Position numbers and translations under genes: made by a program. Shown here piece after piece: positions 12,521 through 64,000 of a stretch of DNA of 64,000 bases; positions within the stretch are counted from its first letter, which is position 1; each line of letters starts with the position of its first letter. Origin of the DNA: Eledone cirrhosa (lineage: Eukaryota); NCBI GenBank assembly GCA_964016885.1, contig OZ024742.1, forward strand, positions 21,700,001 to 21,764,000. The letters run 5' to 3'. The notes beneath the pieces were generated by a model. The model did no database searches, was not told where the DNA came from, and worked only from the letters and a program-made list of their open reading frames with translations.

Positions 12521-15500
12521 TTACTACTACCTAACTCCCTCCTCCCCCGTCCCAGCCCAACATACACTGCCATTATTACCACCACCACTGTTCTTCTAGC
12601 CCTAAATTTTCCTATCGTTATGGATGGATGAGCTGAGAATAAATTGGAGCAACTCTGAATTAATAGATGAAATGAATATGATTCCGCGAGCTACCAAGCA
12701 CCCTTGTGAAGCGCCAATCCAGAGAGAGGAAGCACACACAGACTCCTGCAAAAATCGGCCCTTCCCTACGAGTGTCGACAAATGCCCAAAACTCCGAGTT
12801 GGTACCATCAATGTAAGCACAATGAAAGGAAGAGCAGGAGAAATCGTAGAAATGCTAGAGCGAAAGGAAATTGATGTATGCTGCGTGCAAGGGGCTAGAT
12901 GGAGAGGAGTATCCGCTAGAGTCCTTGTAGGAAAAAGTCGGTGCTACAAATTGTTCTGGGTGGGAAATGACGATGGGATGGGTGGTGTAGGTATACTACT
13001 AGCTGACAAGTGGGTAGATAAAGTAATCTCAGTGTACAGGGTAAATGCAAGAATCATTAAACTCAGACTAGTTCTGAATAAAACAATTACCACAATAATA
13101 TCAGCTTACGCACCCCAATCGGGGTTGCCAGACGAACTTAAGGATAGATTTTACGAGTCCCTAATGCACACTACTGCTCTAACAAACGACAATGACTTCC
13201 TAATCATCGCAGGAGATATTAACGGACACGTAGGTAAACACTGTGACCGCTTCAATAGAGTCCATGGAGGCCATGGGGTTGGCACAAGAAATGAAGAAGG
13301 ATTCAGACTTCTAGAATTCTGCGACGCCAATGACATGTCGATATGTAACACAAACTTCAAAAAACCCGACAACCACCTGATCACCTATAGACCAGGGGAG
13401 CATTCTAGTCAGATAGATTTTATCCTCATCAGAGGACGTGACAGACGGACGGTCGTAAACACAAAAGCCTTCCCTAGTGAGGAATGTTCCTCCCAACATA
13501 GCTTAGTTGTCAGCGACCTCACAGTCAGAACTAGACTAACCTGGAAACAGAGGCCAGCCTGGAGAAGAAAGATCTGGAAGCTGAAAGACCCCTCAGCCAG
13601 TAACAGATTTAAAGATATTTTACTCAACGCCTACGACATTAAAGAAGAACAGATAGAGACATTCAATGTAGAAGAGCACTGGGAGTTCCTAAAAAATAAC
13701 TTACTAGAGGAGACGGATGAGGTCTGTGGCTGGAGTAAGACCACAAGCAGGAGGAGAGTGACTTGGTGGTGGAACAATAAGGTAGATGAGGCAGTTAAGG
13801 CCAAGAGACAGGTATGGAAAGAATGGAAGAACGGGGTAAGCAGGGTACATTACATAGAGACCAAGAGGGAAGCTAAGCGACAAGTATACTTAGCTAGGAG
13901 GGAAGCAGAGGATAGAAAATTCAAGCATGTTTTGCAACGTGAGGACCAGAAACAGGAGGTGTTCAAGATTGCGAGGCAGTGTGTCAGAGAGAATTGTGAT
14001 GTCATTGGAGAGAAGTGTATCCGGAATGATAAAGGTGAGCTTGCCCTCACAAGTGCTGAGAAGAAAGATGCAAGGAAGAGTATTTATGATAGATTACTAA
14101 ATGAGGAGAATGCATGTGAAGAAGAGACCCTACCCCAAGTAGACCCTATAGAGGGGCCAGCAGTACAAGTCAGCAGCAGCGTAATAAGTAAGGCAATCAA
14201 ATATATGAAGATGGGGAAGGCAACCGGTCCATCGGGTATAGCTGCCGAGATGCTGAAGGCATCTGGGTCTGTAGGTCACACTATAACCACACGTATTGTT
14301 AACCAGGTAATACTAGAAGGTATCATACCAAAAGATTGGTGTAGTAGCATCATTGTCAACTGCTACAAAGGTAAAGGTGATGCACTCGATAGAGGAAAAT
14401 ATAGAGGTATAAAGCTGATGGACCAGGTCATGAAAGTAACAGAAAGAGTTATAGCACAGTTGATTAGGGACCGGGTGAAACTAGATGAGATGCAATTTTG
14501 GTTTTTACCACGAAGAGGCACCACTGATGCCCTCTTCCTTGTGAGGCAGTTACAGAAAAAGTACCTAGCAAAAGGTAAGCCACTCTACCTGGTATTCGTC
14601 GATCTCGAGAAAGCCTTTGACAGAGTTCCACGTGCTGTAATCTGGTGGGCTCTTAGAAAACTATGAGAAGATGAATGGGTTGTGAAAGCTGTACAAGCCA
14701 TGTATAGGGGAGCAGTCAGCAAAGTTAGGATTAGCAATGAGTATAGCGAGGAATTTAGCGTACAGTTTTGGGTCCACCAGGGCTCTGTTCTTCGCCCTCT
14801 CCTGTTCATCATAGCCCTGCAGGCAATAACAGAGGAGTTTAAGACCGGATGCCCATGGGAACTCCTGTATGCTGATGACCTCGCACGTATAGCTGAATCT
14901 ATGATAGAACTAGAGAATAAATTCCAAACTTGGAAGCAGGGACTAGAGAGAAAGGGTCTCAAAGTCAACATGACAAAGACTAAGGTTCTATGTAAGTAGA
15001 CGTGAAAACAGAACCCAGATCCCCTCAGGGAAATGGCCTTGTTCAGTATGTAGGAAAGGTGTAGGTAGGAACTCCATTTCCTGCCCCAAATGCAAACAAT
15101 GGGTACACAAGAGAAGTAGCGGGATCTCGGGAAGCTTAATTAAGAATGTAGGCTTCACATGCAGCAGCTGTGCTGGGACAGCAAGCAGCAAACAGCGACA
15201 GGACACAAGTACCACCAATCTCTGGGAGGGCTCTGTAGAGACAGTAGACAGCTTCTGCTACCTAGGTTACCGAATTAGCAGCGGAGGTGGGTGTTCAGAA
15301 AGTACAATAACTAGGGTAAGAACGGGATGGAAGAGTTCAAGGAACTACTACCACTGCTATCTGCAAAAGGCTTCTCCCTCAAAATGAAAGGCAGACTGTA
15401 TGATGCGTGTATCCGAACAGTAATGTTACATGGTAGTGAGACCTGGGCGCTGAAGGTGGAAGACTTACGTAGATTAGAGAGAAACGAAGCCTGCATGCTC

Positions 15501-16375: not shown

Positions 16376-19300
16376 ATATTTATTAAAATAACAGATTACA
16401 GTTTAAGAAAAGAATCGCTGCTTTCACCCTTAACGGGATCTTATGAAACTAACAAAGTCAATCTGTAAACGCAGAACTGGATATTTCAAAAAACGTTGCA
16501 ACCGGAGGAAGACAGGAAGACGATACTTTGGTTCGTGGAAACGTTCGCTGGCAAAGAAGGGAAAAAACGAATAATACATCATTAATAGGAGCTGTGAAAA
16601 ACAAATACGCGCAAAGACAGAACCACGTTTATGGTATAAAAGATGTCGTAGACTAATGTTCTCTCAGGTGGTGCATAGAGACGTTCTCTGGCAATGAACG
16701 AAAAAACGAAGATAATACGTCATATGTGGAGCGTGGAGAACAATAGCACACAAAGACAAAATCACGTAAATGGCATAGCAGAAGTCGTAGACTAAAATTC
16801 TAACTAGGAGACCGAATGAATCTCCGCTACAGAGTTAAGAACAAAGTAAATAAATACAATACAGAAGTAATAGAAATAAATAAATACATACACGCAAACA
16901 AATACGTACATACACAAGCATACGCAAAAACTTACCATAGGTATACAAAACCACGCACATATAAATATGTGTGTGTGTGTGTATGCGTGTATACAAATAA
17001 ATAAATAATTATATAAACGTATATAAATAAATATATACGTATATAAAAAGCGCACACACATACCTAGATATAAATACACGAATGTTCGGAGACGTAAGTC
17101 AACTAAAACATGAAGTACACATATACACACACCCACCATACGTACGAACCTGCATACTCACACAGACGCAAAACTCCCGTATACAGATAGCCAAACCATA
17201 TGTACCAGAATATATAAAATTATACGCCATAACAATCAAATATACGTACGAGAAGGTATACGTACCTTCACAAAACATACAGGTAATATATACTTACCTA
17301 TGCAAATAAGTAAAGGAATAAACAAAACATATACTTAGCTCCCACATCAAGACGTAAAATATCCACGTATAGATCGTACTATCCGTTAGGGTATAACGTG
17401 GGGCTCTAATACAGGAAAGTTTTGTGCAATTTATGTTTACAAGCCGAAATTGCCTCAGATTTTGTGTTTAAGATGTGGTATGTGGCGTAGAGTATTTCCA
17501 GGGCTTCAGCGGCGCAGAGGTCACATGGTCTTTTATTTCCGTTATACGATCTAGCCCTAGCTAGGATCTCCCAGTGTAACTTATATTGGGCGTGGTTGTC
17601 TTTTAGACTCCAGATATAAGCTGAAAGTGACGTCATATCCCTTCTTAGAGGGTAACGAAAAGAATGGGTATGCATGTAAAGACGCTGCTTGAAACTATTG
17701 GTGGTTAACCCTATGTAGGCCCTACGGGACGTGGGTGTTACAACCTTACATTTGTAGACAATGTTACTAGAGAGGCATTTCCCGGATAGGGGGCAATCAG
17801 GCCGATTCCTACAATTACAGTTAGTACTAACTACAGGGTTGCACGTGTTCCTACGGCTAGGTAGTTTAGCTAAATTTGAAGCTGTGATGTTATGTGCAAG
17901 GTTAGGAGTCGTAGAGTAAAACATTTTAATAGTATTTCTATTAAAAATATTACTATATTTATCTGTAGGGGGAAAATGCTTCGTAATAAGGGAAAGAAAG
18001 ATCTTAGCTAATGGTGTGGCCACCTCCATATTATATGGTGGGTTATACCAACAAATGCGACGGGATCTATTTCTTCTAGGTCTATTTTCGTACTCTGTAT
18101 ATGTTAGCTTATCAACAAATCCACTTCGAGCAAGAGCTTCATTGTAATAACTGGAATGGTCGTTGAAAATACGCTCGTTGGAGGAAAGACGGGAAAGCCT
18201 CAACGAAACGTTTCTTACCAGGTTCTTGGCTATGCTGGCAGGATGGTTGGAATGCTTACTTATGTAATTAAGCGTATCATTCGGCTTTCTATACGGGTAA
18301 TACAACCCATTCAATAAATTGAGGGTAACGTCGAGGTAATTAACGACCGAGATATTGGCCTCAACCTGTATAGAGAGGTTGAAGCCTTTAAAGAAGGCTG
18401 TGAGTTCTTTTCTGAACCTGTCGCAAGCACGAGGCCCGCATATAGTCATGGTCAAAAGACCATCGTCACGGTACAAACCACCGCCCGCGTTGGGGAATTC
18501 GTCTTTGATAGAGAAAAGAAGGAAAAGGCCAATAAGATCAGTAACCTCCGCAGAGTCACTGGCGCCCATACTCACGTGGAATGGGGTACTATTGGATTTT
18601 TTAATCCAAATAGAGTCGTCGAAATTAATCACCGACTTTCGGGCATTAAGGATGACATCAACTTCAAAATCCTTAACCTTAGCGAAATTGATAGCTCTAA
18701 GGAGAAGTGGTAAAGTGATGGAAGAGTAGTAATTGTTGATGTCGAATTGGATAAAACGGCAATGTTCCTTGTTACATATGCCGTTGAACCAATCAATCAC
18801 CGCGAAAGAATTGTTCCACAGTGCAAGAGTGGCCAAACTTCTAATTTCAGGTATAATTCTATCAAGAATCGTTTATCGTTTTACTAAGTCTACCTAAATC
18901 GGACTTCGTAGGGTTAATAAGCCGAATAGAGGGATTGTTCGGAAAATTGGATTTGTGATCCTTCAGGGTAAAGTGGGGAGAAATAGGGTCCAGAGGTTCG
19001 GTCCGGTCCAGGATGTTGAGATCAGATGTGATTTTAAACCCAGCATCGTTGATTTCATTGATGACGCACCGATTAGTTTTACGGTAATCTTTAGTTACAG
19101 CATTATGTAGTAGTTGATGGTAAGTACTGCGCTCCACTTGATATAGGTTGCCAGTTTTGTCGGAGTGGACGTGCACGGCATTAGAATCCTTAATAGAACG
19201 AATTCTATTCTTCAGGTGTTGCTGGAAGGAATTGCTCCTATTCTGAAATTTGATACTCCGAATGAGTTCCAAGACATCATTTTCGAGGGGTAGCAATTCT

Positions 19301-19786
19301 GGGTTCCACGGGGGGGGGGGGGGGGTTATTATGGGTTTTAAATCCAAATTTATCCTGTTTGTTGTCTGCTTCTCGCGGATTATCGAAATAAAATGCACGC
19401 CAACGCAACCTGTTAATGAACGCGTCTGTTTTCTGTATCAGGAGTTTTAGGTATGTTTTCCTGCTTGGTACGGGTATGTTCTTTGTAGAAATATTCAGAT
19501 TTTGTTTCTGCATGATGAATATAAGTCAGTAGAGTGCTCAACCGAGGGAGCCAAATAGTAATAATAATAAATTTGAAGACTAAAATCCAAAGAGGTCTCG
19601 ATAAGGATAAATATATATCAAATATATAAGAACCGTAGAGCAAATATTTATTAAAATAACAGATTAAAGTTTAAGCAAAGAATCGCTGCTTTCACCCTTA
19701 ACGGGATCTTCTGAAACTAACAAAGTCAATCTGTAAACGCAGAACTGGATATTTCAAAAAACATTGCAATCGGAGGAAGACAGGAA
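16376..19786 (-). mobile_element. Penelope-like element with 143-bp direct terminal repeats (pseudo-LTRs)
   Basis: 16376-16518 closely matches 19644-19786; together they enclose an RT + GIY-YIG coding region. Confidence 0.9.
17406..19513 (-). pseudogene. PLE reverse transcriptase + C-terminal GIY-YIG endonuclease (~700 aa, two frameshifts)
   Basis: SDKT, FTLKDHK, IRLINP, FDINNYYSSI, MGASDS, LYRDDGL, YLDVTL, YRKP, CNCR linker, IVYKC..YIGLT..FKQR, CDLC..E..LN..SE..CKH; shifts at the G16 run 19310-19325 and near 18870. Confidence 0.92.
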
Positions 19787-47682: not shown

Positions 47683-49227
47683 GGTACTGTACCTAAATCA
47701 GAAACTGTTCTAGTTGTGTTCCAGTTTGTCGCTATATTTTACATGTGTATAACAACGTTAATAGAAAGACAATATGATAAAGATTATGGAATTTATACAA
47801 AGTGCCTAATGTCTTTTATGTCTTTCATTATATTACGGACGTTGCCTTTATAGGAATCAGAAAAAAATATGACGTCAATGATATGGTTCCACGTTTTTTC
47901 TGTGCAGAGATATCAAAATATATTTTTCTATATAACCTAGAGGCAATTTGCTACGAGCTGCTATTTCTTTTTTTTTTCCTCTCTATATTTAATTATGCAT
48001 TATTACTAGTTATTACCTTTAAGTTAAAGGAAGACTGACACAGTAAGCTTGAGAAGGCGGCTACATTGATGTTTTCTCCTCGTATTCTAGACTTAATAAC
48101 TATAATAATACATATATATCTCTTGAAATAATCCAATTTATTCGAAACTATATATGTGAGTGAATGTTCAAATAGTTTGCTTTTTTTATGCTGTGTTTGA
48201 TTTGTGTTTTATGTTGCTGTTGTTGGTGGTGGTGTTTTCTTTTTGTATTGTTTGTCATGCATTTCTTTCTATAAACATATTTAGTCTCTATATGCTACAG
48301 ATTCATTTCAGCACCGAGATGGGAGAACAGTTATTTGGAAGTAAGCAAGTTATATGTGAGTGGCAGTAGTAACGAATGGAGTAGCCAGGAATCTATTAGT
48401 GATCTACACAGCTCACCAATCCGAGAATAAGCTCACTTTTGAAGCTGCGTTATTAAACTATTCTCTCTTGATGGCTTTTCTTTCCGTTTGAAGCGTTCCT
48501 ATATAGCCAACGTATATTTCAACAAAGATTAAACCAGCCTATAACTAATACACACTGCACAATATGTACCTAGTTTAATAGTGGTGATCCGAAAAATGTA
48601 TTAGGGTGGGAGAATTAACGAGCTCCATTTCAAGCATTGTGAAAACTTGTTTAATGTATTTTTATATTTCGGTAGCCGAAGGACTTAAAGACCTTTACAA
48701 GATGAACGTTTGATTTGTTTTCCACACAGATTCAATTTGTGGTAGTTTATATCAGCAATTTCCATACATACCAATGCTTGCAGGGGCCATATATACATAT
48801 ATATATATATATAACGAAGGAAATGTGGTAAGGAACCAGATGGACCATAACGCACCAAAGTACTCAATACTTAGGGTAGTAGAGTGGGTAATAGGAACAA
48901 GCTCTGCTGTCGGAGTCATACTTGTTCCTATATATATATATACATATATATATATATAGAATAGAATGAAACGAAATTTCATTTCTCACTCTTAGTACGG
49001 CACTTACTTAAATGTAAGTATGTATGTATACGTACATACATATATGTATACAGACGTACAGTAGTATGTATATATATACACACATGCAAACATATATATA
49101 TGCACTTATCGGTTTACCGAACATTTATTATAATGCTCGGTTTGTTTGTTTGTAAACAAAAAAACCGAATTACGCCGTACAGTGCTTAGGCAACCACGTC
49201 ACCTTTTTGTTCAACACTGACACAGGA

Positions 49228-49270
49228 ACGATGTACTAGTTTCAAGCTTATTAGCTATCGTCAGCATCGT
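49228..49270 (-). ncRNA. Type I hammerhead ribozyme (family A)
   Basis: ACGAUG CUGACGA U AGCU AAUA AGCU U GAAA CUAG UA CAUCGU; perfect 6-bp stem I. Confidence 0.88.
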
Positions 49271-49672
49271 ATACCTTCCTGCCAGATGGTTGAACATCTG
49301 AAAGTATATACTTTCCTTATGCATATTAACGGCTGAGCAGCCTAATTTGCATATCGAGTGAGTTCAGTCGGCCGGGCACACCGAAAACGATAAATTGTAT
49401 AGAATGAAACGAAATTTCATTTCTCACTCTTAGTACGGCACTTACTTAAATGTAAGTATGTATGTATGTATACGTACACACATATATGTATACAGACGTA
49501 CAGTAGTATGTATATATATACACACATGCAAACATATATATATGCACTTATCGGTTTACCGAACATTTATTATAATGCTCGGTTTGTTTGTTTGTAAAAA
49601 ACAAACAGCCCGAATTACGCCGTACAGTGTTTAGGCAACCACGTTACCTTTTTGTTCAACACTGACACAGGA

Positions 49673-49715
49673 ACAATGTACTAGTTTCAAGCTTATTAGC
49701 TATCGTCAGCATCGT
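49673..49715 (-). ncRNA. Type I hammerhead ribozyme (family A)
   Basis: As above, with stem I ACGAUG/CAUUGU (one G-U pair). Confidence 0.85.
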
Positions 49716-50819
49716 ATACCTTCCTGCCAGATGGTTGAACATATGAAATGATATACTTTCCTTATGCATATTAACGGCTGAGCAGCCTAATTTGCATATC
49801 GAGTGAATTCAGTCGGCCGGGCACACCGAAAACGATAAATGGAATAGAATTTACAAACAAACAAACCGAGCATTATAATAAATGTTCGGTGAACCGATAC
49901 GTGCATATATATATATGTGTGTTTGTGTGTGTGTGTGTGTGTGTATGTGTGTCTGTGTGTCTGTGTGTCTGTGTGTGTTTGTGTGTGTCAATTTTTATTC
50001 ATAAAGGGAAATAACAAAATAAAGTAAATGAAATTGGATCATATTTCACGATCATGGCTTCCAGTTTAGCAAATAGCGATTAATTTTGGAGAGTGTTTAT
50101 CTGCTTATATACGTGTGGGGGGGGGGCGTGAGTGCGTATGTGTTTGTATGTGTATAGAGTAAATCTCTGTGTGCTTGATAGGGAGATTTTAAATATGTCT
50201 CTAAGCAAGGAAATTCCATAGGTCTGGAAACCGGTCAAAATAAAGATATAGAAGGAGAGATTATAATTTGCCTTAAAGCAATAGATATGGTTGATATGTT
50301 TTAAAGTTTATGACATGTTTGTGATTTATAGAACAATTTTATACGTTTGGAGCATTAGAATAATGAAGATTTTGTCGTTTGGTTTAATTTGGTTTAAAGT
50401 GAATCTCATGGTTGTGATATCTGTGTGAGAAAAGATTTAAACTTAATTCGTTATCCGGTTTAACACGCCAACCTCGCTTTTAGTTAGATTTAGCAGATTT
50501 CATTCTGTTGTAAATATTTGGCACACTTTTCTGGGTCGAGGATAACGTCTTCCTTTGTTCTCATTAATATCAGCAACACACAAAACGGTCATGGGTGCCA
50601 CTGATTCTTCTCTGACTAAGAAGTAATCGGAAATATGATACGTTACTAAAAGGCAGATTCCATGAAGTATGGAAATATGGTTATATTGTGCCTAGCTTAT
50701 AGAGTAAATCGTACGGTTGTTACATCTGGTGTAGGATAAAGATCTAATTAATATGGGATATTCAGAGAAAGCGTATAATACTGTCTGTAATGAGGAAATA
50801 TAATTTTCTTCTTCATCGT

Positions 50820-53465: not shown

Positions 53466-53515
<50 letters not shown>

Positions 53516-54230
53516 AAAAGTATGACCTCGACGGCAGAACTCAAGCCGTTTCGACGGCTATTTCTGGACTGAAATAGCCGGCGAAACGGCTTGAGCTCTG
53601 CCCTCGGAGTCATACTTGTAGTGACCGACATTCCGCGGGCTCACATACATTCTCTATGCGTGATTTGGCTCAGTTCAGCCAATCCCTACGCGCCCTGAGG
53701 AAGAAATTCCCCGCGAAGATTTGAAGAATCTCTCTCTTGTACCTGAAACTTCGAGCCAGCAACACGCATAATGTAACGGTGAGATATTGCAGCCTAGCCC
53801 CGCCGGCTTTTCGGCGCAATGGCACATTCCCTTTTGTAACCTCTTTTTATCTGTAACTTCAACCATATAAGTTAACAAACATTGTTTGTGCTACATCAAA
53901 AATAAACATACATTTCATCTCTAATTACTGCTGTTGAAATCATTATTATGTTACTCGTGTCTCAATAACATCTATAATCCATGCTGCTGGAATTGGCGAC
54001 CTGACGAAAGGAATATTGAAAATAGATGGTAAATAGATCGAGGGATCTTCCCTCACGTCTATGTCAACAAGATAATCCAACGAGGATACTATCACTAACC
54101 ACACTGGCAACTAATGAACTTTCATTTTACATCCTGCTAAATACTTTTTCCTATTATCCACTCTACTACCCTAAGTATTGATTACTCTGGTGCGTTATGG
54201 TCCATCTGGTTCCTTACCAAAATTCCTTCG

Positions 54231-54319
<89 letters not shown>

Positions 54320-54439
54320 TATAGACATAGAATATTCGAAAATATTCTGTATGTTTATAATAAACATTTTGAAGACCTAATCGCTATAGAATAGAATACG
54401 TCACGTATTACAATTAGATTCTCGATAAAAGCAAGGGAA

Positions 54440-54482
54440 GTAATCTACGCGTTTCATTCTTGTTAGAAATCATCAGGACTAC
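54440..54482 (-). ncRNA. Type I hammerhead ribozyme (array copy 1)
   Basis: GUAGUC CUGAUGA U UUCU AACA AGAA U GAAA CGCG UA GAUUAC. Confidence 0.9.
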
Positions 54483-54749
54483 ATATCCAGTGCTTTTATC
54501 GAGAATGACACAGCTAGAGACTTATAGAATACTTAGCTGTGTACAGGAACTGGTTTGAAAGAGCGGTTGCCGGTCCGGCAGAAATTAGAAATTGGAATAA
54601 ATGCTCTGAAATAGCGATATATATGTGAATATAGACATAGAATATTCGAAAATATTCTGTATGTTTATAATAAACATTTTGAAGACCTAATCGCTATAGA
54701 ATAGAATACGTCACGTATTACAATTAGATTCTCGATAAAAGCAAGGGAA

Positions 54750-54792
54750 GTAATCTACGCGTTTCATTCTTGTTAGAAATCATCAGGACTAC
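54750..54792 (-). ncRNA. Type I hammerhead ribozyme (array copy 2)
   Basis: Same motif, +310. Confidence 0.9.
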
Positions 54793-55059
54793 ATATCCAG
54801 TGCTTTTATCGAGAATGACACAGCTAGAGACTTATAGAATACTTAGCTGTGTACAGGAACTGGTTTGAAAGAGCGGTTGCCGGTCCGGCAGAAATTAGAA
54901 ATTGGAATAAATGCTCTGAAATAGCGATATATATGTGAATATAGACATAGAATATTCGAAAATATTCTGTATGTTTATAATAAACATTTTGAAGACCTAA
55001 TCGCTATAGAATAGAATACGTCACGTATTACAATTAGATTCTCGATAAAAGCAAGGGAA

Positions 55060-55102
55060 GTAATCTACGCGTTTCATTCTTGTTAGAAATCATCAGGACT
55101 AC
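55060..55102 (-). ncRNA. Type I hammerhead ribozyme (array copy 3)
   Basis: Same motif, +620. Confidence 0.9.
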
Positions 55103-55369
55103 ATATCCAGTGCTTTTATCGAGAATGACACAGCTAGAGACTTATAGAATACTTAGCTGTGTACAGGAACTGGTTTGAAAGAGCGGTTGCCGGTCCGGCA
55201 GAAATTAGAAATTGGAATAAATGCTCTGAAATAGCGATATATATGTGAATATAGACATAGAATATTCGAAAATATTCTGTATGTTTATAATAAACATTTT
55301 GAAGACCTAATCGCTATAGAATAGAATACGTCACGTATTACAATTAGATTCTCGATAAAAGCAAGGGAA

Positions 55370-55412
55370 GTAATCTACGCGTTTCATTCTTGTTAGAAAT
55401 CATCAGGACTAC
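55370..55412 (-). ncRNA. Type I hammerhead ribozyme (array copy 4)
   Basis: Same motif, +930. Confidence 0.9.
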
Positions 55413-55679
55413 ATATCCAGTGCTTTTATCGAGAATGACACAGCTAGAGACTTATAGAATACTTAGCTGTGTACAGGAACTGGTTTGAAAGAGCGGTTGC
55501 CGGTCCGGCAGAAATTAGAAATTGGAATAAATGCTCTGAAATAGCGATATATATGTGAATATAGACATAGAATATTCGAAAATATTCTGTATGTTTATAA
55601 TAAACATTTTGAAGACCTAATCGCTATAGAATAGAATACGTCACGTATTACAATTAGATTCTCGATAAAAGCAAGGGAA

Positions 55680-55722
55680 GTAATCTACGCGTTTCATTCT
55701 TGTTAGAAATCATCAGGACTAC
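55680..55722 (-). ncRNA. Type I hammerhead ribozyme (array copy 5)
   Basis: Same motif, +1240. Confidence 0.9.
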
Positions 55723-56265
55723 ATATCCAGTGCTTTTATCGAGAATGACACAGCTAGAGACTTATAGAATACTTAGCTGTGTACAGGAACTGGTTTGAAA
55801 GAGCGGTTGCCGGTCCGGCAGAAATTAGAAATTGGAATAAATGCTCTGAAATAGCGATATATATGTGAATATAGACATAGAATATTCGAAAATATTCTGT
55901 ATGTTTATAATAAACATTTTGAAGACCTAATCGCTATAGAATAGAATACGTCACGTATTACAATTAGATTCTCGATAAAAGCAAGGGAAGTAATCTACTT
56001 CCCTTGCTTTTATCGAGAATCTAATTGTAATACGTGACGTATTCTATTCTATAGCGATTAGGTCTTCAAAATGTTTATTATAAACATACAGAATATTTTC
56101 GAATATTCTATGTCTATATTCACATATATATCGCTATTTCAGAGCATTTATTCCAATTTCTAATTTCTGCCGGACCGGCAACCGCTCTTTCAAACCAGTT
56201 CCTGTACACAGCTAAGTATTCTATAAGTCTCTAGCTGTGTCATTCTCGATAAAAGCACTGGATAT

Positions 56266-56308
56266 GTAGTCCTGATGATTTCTAACAAGAATGAAACGCG
56301 TAGATTAC
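56266..56308 (+). ncRNA. Type I hammerhead ribozyme (inverted arm copy)
   Basis: GTAGTC CTGATGA TTTCTAACAAGAAT GAAA CGCG TA GATTAC. Confidence 0.9.
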
Positions 56309-56485
56309 TTCCCTTGCTTTTATCGAGAATCTAATTGTAATACGTGACGTATTCTATTCTATAGCGATTAGGTCTTCAAAATGTTTATTATAAACATACA
56401 GAATATTTTCGAATATTCTATGTCTATATTCACATATATATCGCTATTTCAGAGCATTTATTCCAATATATATATATATATATAT

Positions 56486-59066
<2,581 letters not shown>

Positions 59067-60901: not shown

Positions 60902-61003
<102 letters not shown>

Positions 61004-61199
61004 AGTCGTTTGGAAGCCTCGACAATGTAAATGGGTAAATCTCCGGGTAAGAAGATCCGGTGGTAGAGATAGAGATGTAAGTGGGTGTACGTTAAGATGC
61101 ATGGTGTATATAAGACGTGTAGAGGAATGAAGGAAAGAGTATAAAGGATAAAATAAAAATAACAACACGAGAGAGAGTTACCTTGGGAGAGATTTAAGT

Positions 61200-63785
61200 G
61201 TCCCTATATATTTCGGATTCACATCCATCAACCTGGGGTTTTTTTCCGGGGTGGGGGAAAGGTTGTCTGTCGGAAAGGTGCGAAACGCGTCGTCCGCTGT
61301 TTGTTGTTTTGAATATCTGAGGTATTCGGCAGAGCGCGCGTGCGCGTGAAATGGGGTCGGTCTGGCAGAGGTCAGCGGCCGAATGTGGGAGTGGGGTGGC
61401 GCTGTCAGTCCATTCTCTGCCTGTTTCTTAAATGTTACTGTGTGTGTGTACGTGTGTTGTTGTCTCGCTTGAGTGTGTGTGTGTGTGTGTGCGTGTGTTG
61501 TTGCCTTGTTCCTCTGTATTGGCAGTGTAGTATGTTCGTATGGCGAAATGCTACTGTGTGTGTGTGCGTGTGCCTGTGCAGTTGTCTCGTTTGTGTGTGT
61601 GTGTGTGTGTGTGCGTGTGTTGCTGCATCGTTTGTTAACTTAAACCAGCCACTCATTTCGCTTCTCTCGGATCGATTGTTTATTTGCGGTGCCAGGCGTT
61701 TGATAAAAAGCGCTTCTTTGATACGTAACGTGCTGACGTTTCTTTCAGTCGCTAGAATTGTGACAATGGGCCTTCCGTCTTTGTTTCCGCATTTATCTAA
61801 GTGTTTCCGGAAAGACGAGGCCCTAGTGTTAGTGTGTTCCTTGATCCGGATGTGCAAAGGTCGGATTGTGCTACCTATATAGTATTGGTTGCACCTGTCA
61901 CATTCTATCTTATACACGACGTATGTGCGTAGGCAACAGTTCGCATGGCGTATCGGGCAGTCTCTGAGGGAGCACGCGTCAGTAGATTTCCCGGGTTTCC
62001 TGGAGAGGCATCTTCGCAAGGAGGGGCCCGAGTGGGCCAGGTGGATGTCGAGGCCCTCCCTCCGTATAGCCTTGCGGATAGCGTTGGTGGTTTTCTCGCC
62101 CAGGTGTGGCATTTTAAGGAAGCACTTGCCGTGGGTGCCTCTCTGTCTCTTGTGCCTGGCGTCTCCCACTCTGTCTGTGAGCGAGGTAGGGTACCCGTTC
62201 GTCTCCAGCCGCCTCGAGGAATCGCTTGGTATGAGTGACACCATTCGCGGGATCGCTGCATCTGTTTTTGATTCGCGCGATCTCGTTCGTGATGTATCAT
62301 CTTTTGGCACTGTTAGGGAGGGCGGACTTGTAGTGAACGAACAGGTACCTGCAGGCTGCCTTTCGGTAGAAGTTGCAGTGGATCCCTCCCTGTTCCGTGA
62401 TGTTGATTCGGAAGTCGAGGAGGGCAAGTGCCACGTCTTCGTTGGGGTTTTCAACACTGAAGTCAATGTTCTCGTCGGTGTTGTTGAACGTCTCATAGAT
62501 TCTCTTCGCCGTGTCTTGGGAAGATGTGAGGATGAGGATATCATCCACGTACCTTGAGAAAAAGGCGACGGCGTTGGGGTGGCAGGCGTCGAGTGCCTTG
62601 CGCTCGAGGTTGTCCATGTAAGAGACCGCTAGCACACCTTATAGGCTTGATCCCATGGGCAATCCCGAGGTTTGTTGGTATGTTTGGTCAAGGAATCCGA
62701 AGTAGGTGTTGTCGACGACGATGGATAGGAGTTGGTGGATGTCAGTGGTGGTGAGTCCGAAGCAGTGTAGGTCGGTGGATTGGACGCGTTCCAGCTGTAT
62801 ATTGACGGCCGGGAGTGCCGGGACCGAGGTGTAGAGAGCGACTACATCAAGGCTGAAGGCATATCTGTTATTCCTTCTGGTGTCGGGATCCATTTGATGC
62901 AGGCGCTTCAACACCTCCTCGGAGCTGTTAACGTGTCCCGGCAAGGTGTCTAAGATGGGTTTGAGTATTCTGGCTAGGAGCCATGAAATTTTGTAGAGTG
63001 GTACCTCCACGCTCGATAGAATGGGCCTGATCTTCAGGTCGGGTCCCTGCTTGTGTGTTTTCACGAGGTGGTAGAAGGTGGGTCGTCTGCTGTTCCTCGT
63101 GAGGATGTTGTATCTCAGCTTCTTCGGGAGCTTCCGCCGGTCGCAGATGTTGGTCCAGGCGGCGTTGATGTGCTCTTCTATCTGCGGGTGATTCCCGTGA
63201 CCTTGGAGTAGAGGTTGTCATCGTCAAGGTGTTGGAGGGCCAGGGTGTTGTAGGCCTCTCTGCTGATGACGCAGAATTCTTTTCCCTTGTCGGAGGGGAG
63301 ATAGATGAGGTTCTTCGATTTTAGGTTGGAGAGAGTGGTGAGTTGTGATTTGGTGAGATTATGTGTTGTGCGTGTGTGTGTGTGTGTTTGTGAAGTATAT
63401 CCGAGATGGAGTGTTTTAGCCTGATGAGTTTAGTGTCGAGTTCGTGGTTGGTGGGTCGGGGGTGGAGTGGGTTGTCGGGGTGGTAAGTGGGGAACTTGAG
63501 GTGGGTTGCGTGGGCGCTGTTATTTTCTGTGGCACTGTTGATGGCGGTCACCCATTTAAGTTGGTAAGCGGCTCGACAAAAGTTGGCCTCGATGTTGAGT
63601 TTGAGTCTGTCGTAGAGACGTTGTGAAACGATGAACTTGGGTCCGAGGTGTAGGAGTTTCAGCTCGTCGCTCGTGAGAGTGCCGGTTCGGTCGGTGACCA
63701 GGTGCGTCGCATCGTTGAGGTGTGGCTCGGTGTTGGTGGATGCGGCGGTAGCGGTTGTTAAGTTGTTGTTTTCCACGTGGTTCTG
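61200..63785 (-). mobile_element. GC-rich Penelope-like element (RT + C-terminal GIY-YIG), frameshifted
   Basis: LGPKF, PSDKG, KTHK, IRPILS, FSLDVVALYTSVP, QTSGLPMGS, RYVDDIL, LLDFRI, FYRK, VVYKIEC..C...YIGSTIR.LHIRIKEH, LRIKEALFI....PQINNRSE. Confidence 0.92.
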
Positions 63786-64000
63786 GTCCGCCCTCCCTAA
63801 CAGTGCCAAAAGAGGATACATCACGAACGTGATCGCGCGAATCAAAAATAGATGCAGCGATCCCGCGAGTGGTATCACTCATACCAAGCGATTCCTCGAG
63901 GTGCTGGAGACGAACGGGTACCCTACCTCGCTCACAGACAGAGTGGGAGACGCCAGGCACAAAAGACAGAGAGGCACCCAAGGAAAGTGCTTCCTTAAAA
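63786..64000 (+). mobile_element. Inverted second copy of the same PLE (runs off the window)
   Basis: Reverse complement of 62112-62327 with several differences; the reading frame is open (ALPNSAKRGYITNVIARIKNRCS...NGYP...CFLK). Confidence 0.9.

Follow-up and report, generated by a model that had tools for sequence, protein, structure and literature searches.

We identified a repeat insertion of about 2.2 kb at positions 54,316-56,467 of a 64,000-nucleotide stretch of the Eledone cirrhosa genome (assembly GCA_964016885.1, contig OZ024742.1, positions 21,700,001 to 21,764,000 of the forward strand; hereafter the window). The insertion consists of two head-to-head arrays of a 310-bp unit inside a (TA)n microsatellite, and the unit carries a hammerhead ribozyme motif. 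Positions within the unit are numbered from the first base 3' of the predicted ribozyme cut.

The left target microsatellite, (TA)42, spans 54,232-54,315 (Tandem Repeats Finder and sequence). The longer arm, arm A, occupies 54,316-55,998 on the minus strand and contains five full units with 0 differences between them plus a partial sixth, giving 5.43 identical units. Its outer end, 'end A', falls at unit position 130 and adjoins the unit's own AUAUAUAU. The first type I hammerhead core (stem I, CUGAUGA, stem II, GAAA and an ACGCGU palindrome) lies at 54,440-54,482 on the minus strand, with a predicted cut between 54,446 and 54,445. Further minus-strand cores lie at 54,750-54,792, 55,060-55,102, 55,370-55,412 and 55,680-55,722. 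Each unit also contains a perfect 16-bp helix beyond stem I that closes the ribozyme domain (minus strand, 54,418-54,506 in the first copy, with arms at 54,491-54,506 and 54,418-54,433), assigned from folding and from covariation with an older family described below.

Arm A meets a shorter arm at a centre junction (55,993-55,998) that combines a 3-nt loop with 3 nt of microhomology. A perfect 472-bp palindrome extends from this fold-back, and 55,996-56,467 is thus an inverted arm (arm B, plus strand) of 1.52 units with one plus-strand hammerhead (core 56,266-56,308, predicted cut between 56,302 and 56,303). The junction coincides with the predicted cut site, apparently by chance. The outer end of arm B, 'end B', falls at unit position 165. 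A 35-bp 'tail' (unit positions 131-165; 56,433-56,467, plus strand) is present at this outer end only and abuts the right target microsatellite, an (AT)n tract of about (AT)10 at 56,468-56,485 (identified from the sequence).

A sequence-only reading of the window had recognised the 310-bp period, the identity of the copies, the 16-bp helix and the flanking (TA)n tracts, all of which hold. It had placed every monomer on the minus strand of a plain array, and so missed the turn into an inverted, plus-strand arm and the two fixed outer ends. The unit is AT-rich (GC 0.33 over 54,001-56,000), and its length and composition lie within the retrozyme range of 150-450 bp and less than 50% GC. No open reading frame (ORF) of at least 130 aa occurs across the array, which thus has no protein-coding capacity and no ORF with reverse transcriptase (RT) and GIY-YIG domains. 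Rfam microRNA matches at the hairpin were rejected as artefacts of the palindrome.

A dispersed family with paired outer ends

Copies and ends were counted across the 3.0-Gb genome by exact sequence patterns. We found 4,208 exact copies of a 35-nt core (0 for the reversed control); end A occurs 1,253 times and end B 1,306 times. The end counts are a floor for the number of insertions, which we place at about 1,250-1,300. A genome-wide copy search was among the checks proposed with the sequence-only reading, and it reveals dispersed copies: what had been called a local 310-bp 'satellite' is one of more than 1,200 insertions. Sporadic differences amount to 72 in 132,897 aligned bases (0.05%), and the family is therefore very young.

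Mapping the window and 52 fetched stretches onto the unit gave 56 element calls. Two arms are present in 47 of these, always in the orientation minus then plus, so that the 5' sides of the RNA face each other at the centre. Outer ends fall at nonrandom positions: end A lies at unit position about 130-139, beside the unit's own AUAUAUAU, and end B at about 165-170, and the 35-bp tail between the A and B sites is found at one end only. One A and one B end occur in 43 of the two-arm calls; two others are cut off at the fetch limit and two are halves of one complex locus. A (TA)3 motif lies within 12 nt of both outer ends in 39 of 42 elements. The complex locus (L043) contains a repeated inner junction (minus-plus-minus-plus), which suggests that the junction was re-copied.

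The pairing of ends is also evident in the first 217.8 Mb of contig C1, where 126 of 195 listed ends form 63 adjacent minus-plus pairs. Every one of these pairs has an A+B composition (63/63; 33 BA and 30 AB). By exact patterns, 69 of the 195 ends lack a partner. Among 18 partnerless ends that were fetched, 12 belong to two-armed elements in which the complementary end is shifted by a few bases, and the other six are single-armed or have a stub. An arm in inverted orientation and two outer ends at fixed sites suggest that Penelope-like machinery is involved.

The two arms also share a template. Wherever each arm holds two full units or more, one and the same set of fixed variants occurs in both (26 of 26 elements; shuffled mean 5.4, maximum 14). 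Eighteen of the 26 share a non-reference haplotype between arms, and 11 haplotypes are represented. A single haplotype, of at least 11 in total, runs through each array. Array uniformity and a common arm haplotype make it more likely that a single unit was copied repeatedly during insertion than that it was amplified later; the sequence-only reading had left both routes open. Fixation of variants through whole insertions implies that the template passed through a one-unit bottleneck, most simply a circle.

Inner ends are scattered over the whole unit, with 3 of 88 no more than 5 nt from the predicted cut (3.1 expected), and arms extend up to 45 units. Microhomology of at least 2 nt is found at 20 of 31 insert-free inner junctions versus 18% by chance, and 13 more junctions have inserted bases. 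One duplicated element (L057) and the two halves of L043 were left out of the inner-junction, microhomology and (TA)3 counts. At one locus, a 272-nt GC-rich foreign piece without a match among the other sequences compared is captured between the arms (L036:3099-3370). We also considered whether the fold-back represents the 5' end of a ribozyme-cut RNA and rejected this, as the cut shows no excess of inner ends and mirror junctions at the cut site number four genome-wide (the window's own included) versus three at a control position.

An older sister family is 67-80% identical to the young unit (719 exact matches to one 24-mer) and mostly occurs as one or two units. Its A and B sites are at the same positions as in the young family, while its ribozyme has been rewritten. 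Blocks at unit positions 139-155, 175-194 and 66-79, which lie outside the ribozyme in the region of ends A and B, are nearly constant between the two families and include a small GAC-loop hairpin. These blocks are candidate RT recognition or promoter signals.

None of the listed sequencing runs containing the unit is an RNA run. Three runs labelled as other organisms yielded one 340-nt closed contig at a depth of 10-15. Horizontal transfer and an RNA origin were rejected for this contig: in the one run also compared with the flank, a trace of the flanking repeat occurs at a similar ratio, and we read the contig as trace host DNA. The right flank of the insertion is itself repetitive.

The window contains other repeats. 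A second type I hammerhead family, with a U.U pair at the base of stem II and a palindromic ACUAGU, forms a 445-bp tandem at 48,952-49,850 (minus-strand cores at 49,264 and 49,709) and a short head-to-head pair at 274 (minus) and 372 (plus); it is also present at L052, L079, L084 and L133. A long imperfect hairpin at 53,515-53,620 directly follows a (TA)22 tract. Downstream of the array are two more pairs of 97% identical inverted arms (56,730-56,895 with 58,104-58,269, and 58,394-58,518 with 58,929-59,053), which are possibly other head-to-head insertions.

Hammerhead motif and predicted fold

The conserved type I core (CUGANGA, GAAA, UH and stems I and II) is present in every unit. Stem I is GUAGUC/GAUUAC, followed by CUGAUGA, stem II and GAAA, with a predicted cut after GUA, and a palindromic ACGCGU takes the place of helix III. 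The sequence-only reading had given this core as GUAGUC-CUGAUGA-stem II-GAAA-CGCG-UA-GAUUAC, as we find it in each unit; its stem II was correct in the four pairs and omitted the U.U pair at the base.

Folding of the 100-nt ribozyme region gives z = -5.7, and 0 of 200 shuffles do as well. A stable helix III is not predicted for the monomer, and a 6-bp ACGCGU helix is predicted between two units. For two adjacent units, the unconstrained best fold is a double hammerhead, with cross-pair probabilities of 0.79-0.87. Neighbouring units are thus predicted by the folding model to act as dimers.

Pairing is retained or improved by each of the six substitutions that are fixed at paired positions. This is weak evidence, as the changes are one-sided and mostly A to G. 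The sole core change among the fixed variants affects the free position 7. In comparison with the older sister family, pairing holds in 90% of cells across the 15 pairs scored in the closing helix and stem II, and 8 of the 15 have two-sided changes. Stem I was excluded from this count because MAFFT shifted its 3' side between families. An anchored recount matched 18 of 23 rows, nearly all from the old family, and was not used.

Copying mechanism and alternative explanations

Three ORF-bearing families of Penelope-like elements (PLEs) in the same genome share the head-to-head layout with two ends, which are separated by about 40, 70 and 87 nt. One of these is represented in the window by a decayed PLE (61,001-64,000, minus strand) that has a GIY-YIG domain and terminates in (AT)n. 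Its family is large, forms head-to-head insertions with ends 40 nt apart and retains a near-intact 923-aa ORF in L115. A young, intact family (L164:3129-5591, plus strand, and L199-L206) encodes an 821-aa ORF, carries a hammerhead with a UGCGCA palindrome and has ends about 87 nt apart. At least 51 of its 55 listed copies at 98-99% identity are stop-free, and we take its motifs to resemble those of the Hydra clade. A broken PLE at 17,415-19,516 of the window (minus strand) is related to this 821-aa family. A further hammerhead family (L125-L167; 9,826 exact 25-mers) has a stem II almost identical to that of the 310-nt unit, sits directly upstream of a PLE ORF in L131 and includes many tiny palindromic insertions with mirror junctions. 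The window also contains a fragment of a long interspersed nuclear element with endonuclease and RT domains (12,606-14,666, plus strand).

We consider it likely that the insertion in the window is a non-autonomous non-LTR (long terminal repeat) retrozyme, whose predicted RNA circle was reverse-transcribed by a PLE enzyme with priming from both strands of the nicked target. That a PLE enzyme primed from both sides on a single template, circular or linear, is very probable. We infer the cleavage, the circle, the enzyme and the order of steps as follows. The array would be transcribed into multimeric RNA, in which neighbouring units would pair their ACGCGU palindromes, form a double hammerhead and be cut after GUA into 310-nt monomers. 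A host ligase would circularise these monomers, and a lone circle without a partner would stay closed. A PLE enzyme acting in trans would nick a (TA)n tract on both strands and extend both 3' ends along one circle, starting at unit position about 130-139 for one end and about 165-170 for the other. Each complementary DNA (cDNA) would circle the template for a variable number of turns; the two cDNA ends would then be joined through microhomology of a few bases, followed by fill-in. We lean, with more reserve, towards a fuller version in which the more than 1,200 insertions record twin-primed rolling-circle reverse transcription by a dimeric Penelope enzyme on the two strands of a cut microsatellite, each subunit having its own fixed start site on one ribozyme-made circle.

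Several observations weigh against this model. No PLE sharing sequence with the 310-nt unit was found among the families sampled (the window family, two further families and 30 GIY-YIG loci); the sole likeness counted is that the stem II of the unit resembles the hammerhead of one PLE family, a faint similarity of motifs between tails being left out of account. The youngest intact PLE family has an 87-nt tail rather than one of 35. Uncut RNA was the main PLE template in vitro (PMC11167929), and a circle is therefore not required in principle. The same study saw no strand difference in start site, whereas the two outer ends always differ here. Nine of the 56 element calls are single-armed, one of them interrupted by an assembly gap. 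As regards the ribozyme, the Rfam check suggested by the sequence-only reading aligned the core in all six complete window copies, but as a weak match to Hammerhead_HH9 (19.2 bits; gathering threshold 52); the output lists no Hammerhead_1 row, and clan overlaps keep the best match only. Most of the covariation goes back to a single separation of two related families, and its cells are not independent events. Two of five shuffle measures are not exceeded (103 and 114 of 500). Finally, according to the accessible text of a recent preprint, one of nine predicted dimers of Xenopus retrozymes cleaved when tested (10.64898/2026.07.22.740005).

Because the Anolis PLE protein PAc used unprocessed RNA in vitro, the main rival is the same two-sided priming on a long, uncut linear multimer from a donor array, with no circle. 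Ribozyme mutants also insert normally in that system (PMC11167929), long uniform donor arrays exist (45 units), and a linear multimer likewise predicts common haplotypes and no stop at the cut. It offers no route, however, for a new variant to become fixed in all units, yet 11 haplotypes are fixed across whole insertions, several of them seen at just one sampled locus each. A 14-kb transcript would moreover have to survive about 45 predicted cut sites, and the ribozyme fold is conserved. We regard the linear template as rather unlikely. Alternatively, the inverted arm could arise by self-priming (fold-back) of one cDNA or of an antisense template, as proposed for the head-to-head palindromes of rotifer Penelopes (accessible text of PMC3846280). 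The perfect hairpin at the window junction and several short insertions of a related PLE family with mirror junctions would fit this route. In the 310-bp family, however, mirror-phase junctions (inner ends within 20 nt) are at chance level (7 of 47 versus 6.2 expected), either arm may exceed the other (arm A is longer in 21 of 43) and the second arm ends at a fixed site unlike that of the first. The non-mirror inner ends and the variable longer arm make fold-back unlikely as a rule; as the main route, self-priming is already largely refuted, and we think it very improbable.

PLEs carry hammerheads in their terminal repeats (pLTRs), and the unit could be a mere pLTR of an autonomous PLE, with the arrays as 5'-truncated partial tandems. 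We give this little credence: 0 of 47 two-arm calls run from the unit into PLE coding sequence, the arms make as many as 45 rounds of the same 310 nt, and the older sister family is likewise not fused to an ORF. In short-read contigs of one sample, the share continuing into unlike sequence is 0, and (AT)n is the best-supported loose end among those shown. The 100% identity of the units could also point to an assembly or long-read fold-back artefact, or to an ordinary satellite amplified at the DNA level, since palindromes can come from read chimeras and unit counts per array may be mis-assembled. Yet flanks and fixed ends differ between the two sides, haplotypes and junctions are locus-specific, and an older, decayed family has the same ends. 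The tandem join and the end-A junction also occur in short-read contigs, although the sample may be that of the assembly. An artefact or an ordinary satellite is the least probable of these explanations.

Relation to known systems

The family has every sequence feature expected of a non-LTR retrozyme, a class already known, and is not an autonomous PLE. The sequence-only reading was right to call it a young family of this kind, as it is a dispersed, non-coding tandem repeat with type I hammerheads. Published accounts of metazoan non-LTR retrozymes (Cervera and de la Pena 2020, PMC7229834; Li et al. 2026, 10.64898/2026.07.22.740005) describe, in their accessible parts, similar low-GC tandem units of about 300 nt with one type I hammerhead each, present in thousands of non-coding copies and with mobilisation by PLEs proposed. 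Head-to-head arms, fixed paired ends, a tail and (TA)n targeting, all found here, are absent from these parts of both accounts. Copying of retrozyme circles by a PLE RT is given as a hypothesis in the former (PMC7229834). The latter favours later local amplification and argues from homology that retrozymes descend from pLTRs; its accessible main text does not mention tails or palindromes (10.64898/2026.07.22.740005). Such pLTR homology was not found for the 310-nt unit among the PLE families sampled. A giant squid genome paper, in its accessible part, counts 235 Hammerhead_1 matches. A repeat near 3.2-3.6 kb of the window may likewise be of cephalopod type.

The architecture of the insertions resembles that of endonuclease-positive PLEs. 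Published PLE insertions are described as having an inverted, 5'-truncated copy, a 30-40-bp tail at one end and, in several clades, (TA)n targets (accessible text of PMC8557442 and PMC3846280). In vitro, PAc cuts and extends both target strands from two internal start sites that bound the tail (PMC11167929). The family described here shares the inverted truncated copy, the one-sided tail (35 bp), the (TA)n or AT-rich targets and the two start sites. It differs from these PLEs in having no ORF and in arms that consist of many turns of one 310-nt unit, and from PAc in that the start sites are strictly one per side (63/63), which was not seen in vitro.

How retrozyme circles are copied into the genome, and what gives PLE insertions their inverted form and one-sided tail, are presented as open questions in the accessible text of earlier work (PMC7229834, PMC8557442, PMC11167929, 10.64898/2026.07.22.740005). 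Twin-armed retrozyme insertions and paired start sites are not described in the literature searched, which covered few subscription journals and excluded supplements. Insertion-level evidence of this kind for the proposed mechanism is likewise absent from the literature searched; the family is a new member of an established class, and its genomic evidence is unusually clean. It follows strict rules that can be counted: each side has its own start site, both arms share a template and copying does not stop at the cut. With the dozens of intact PLE ORFs that the genome also encodes, an in vitro assay that already exists could be used to test the mechanism. If correct, a twin-primed rolling circle would show how animal retrozymes move, and two-sided priming, not self-priming, would explain the inverted-plus-tail anatomy of all PLEs. 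The family also hints at a way of writing long tandem DNA from a small circular RNA.

The ribozyme is similar to newt and axolotl satellite-2 type hammerheads, which have a helix III of one or two pairs, a palindromic loop and a double-hammerhead fold (predicted here), and a dimeric mode of action has been described for such palindromic motifs (accessible text of PMC4209133 and PMC7229834). The motif in E. cirrhosa differs in its invertebrate-like AT-rich context, its U.U pair at the base of stem II and its 16-bp closing helix. A parallel for the insertion step is L1 twin priming, in which both target 3' ends prime on one linear RNA, the second site is variable and the inverted 5' part is joined by microhomology. 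In the retrozyme family, by contrast, both sites are fixed and each arm comprises many rounds of the template.
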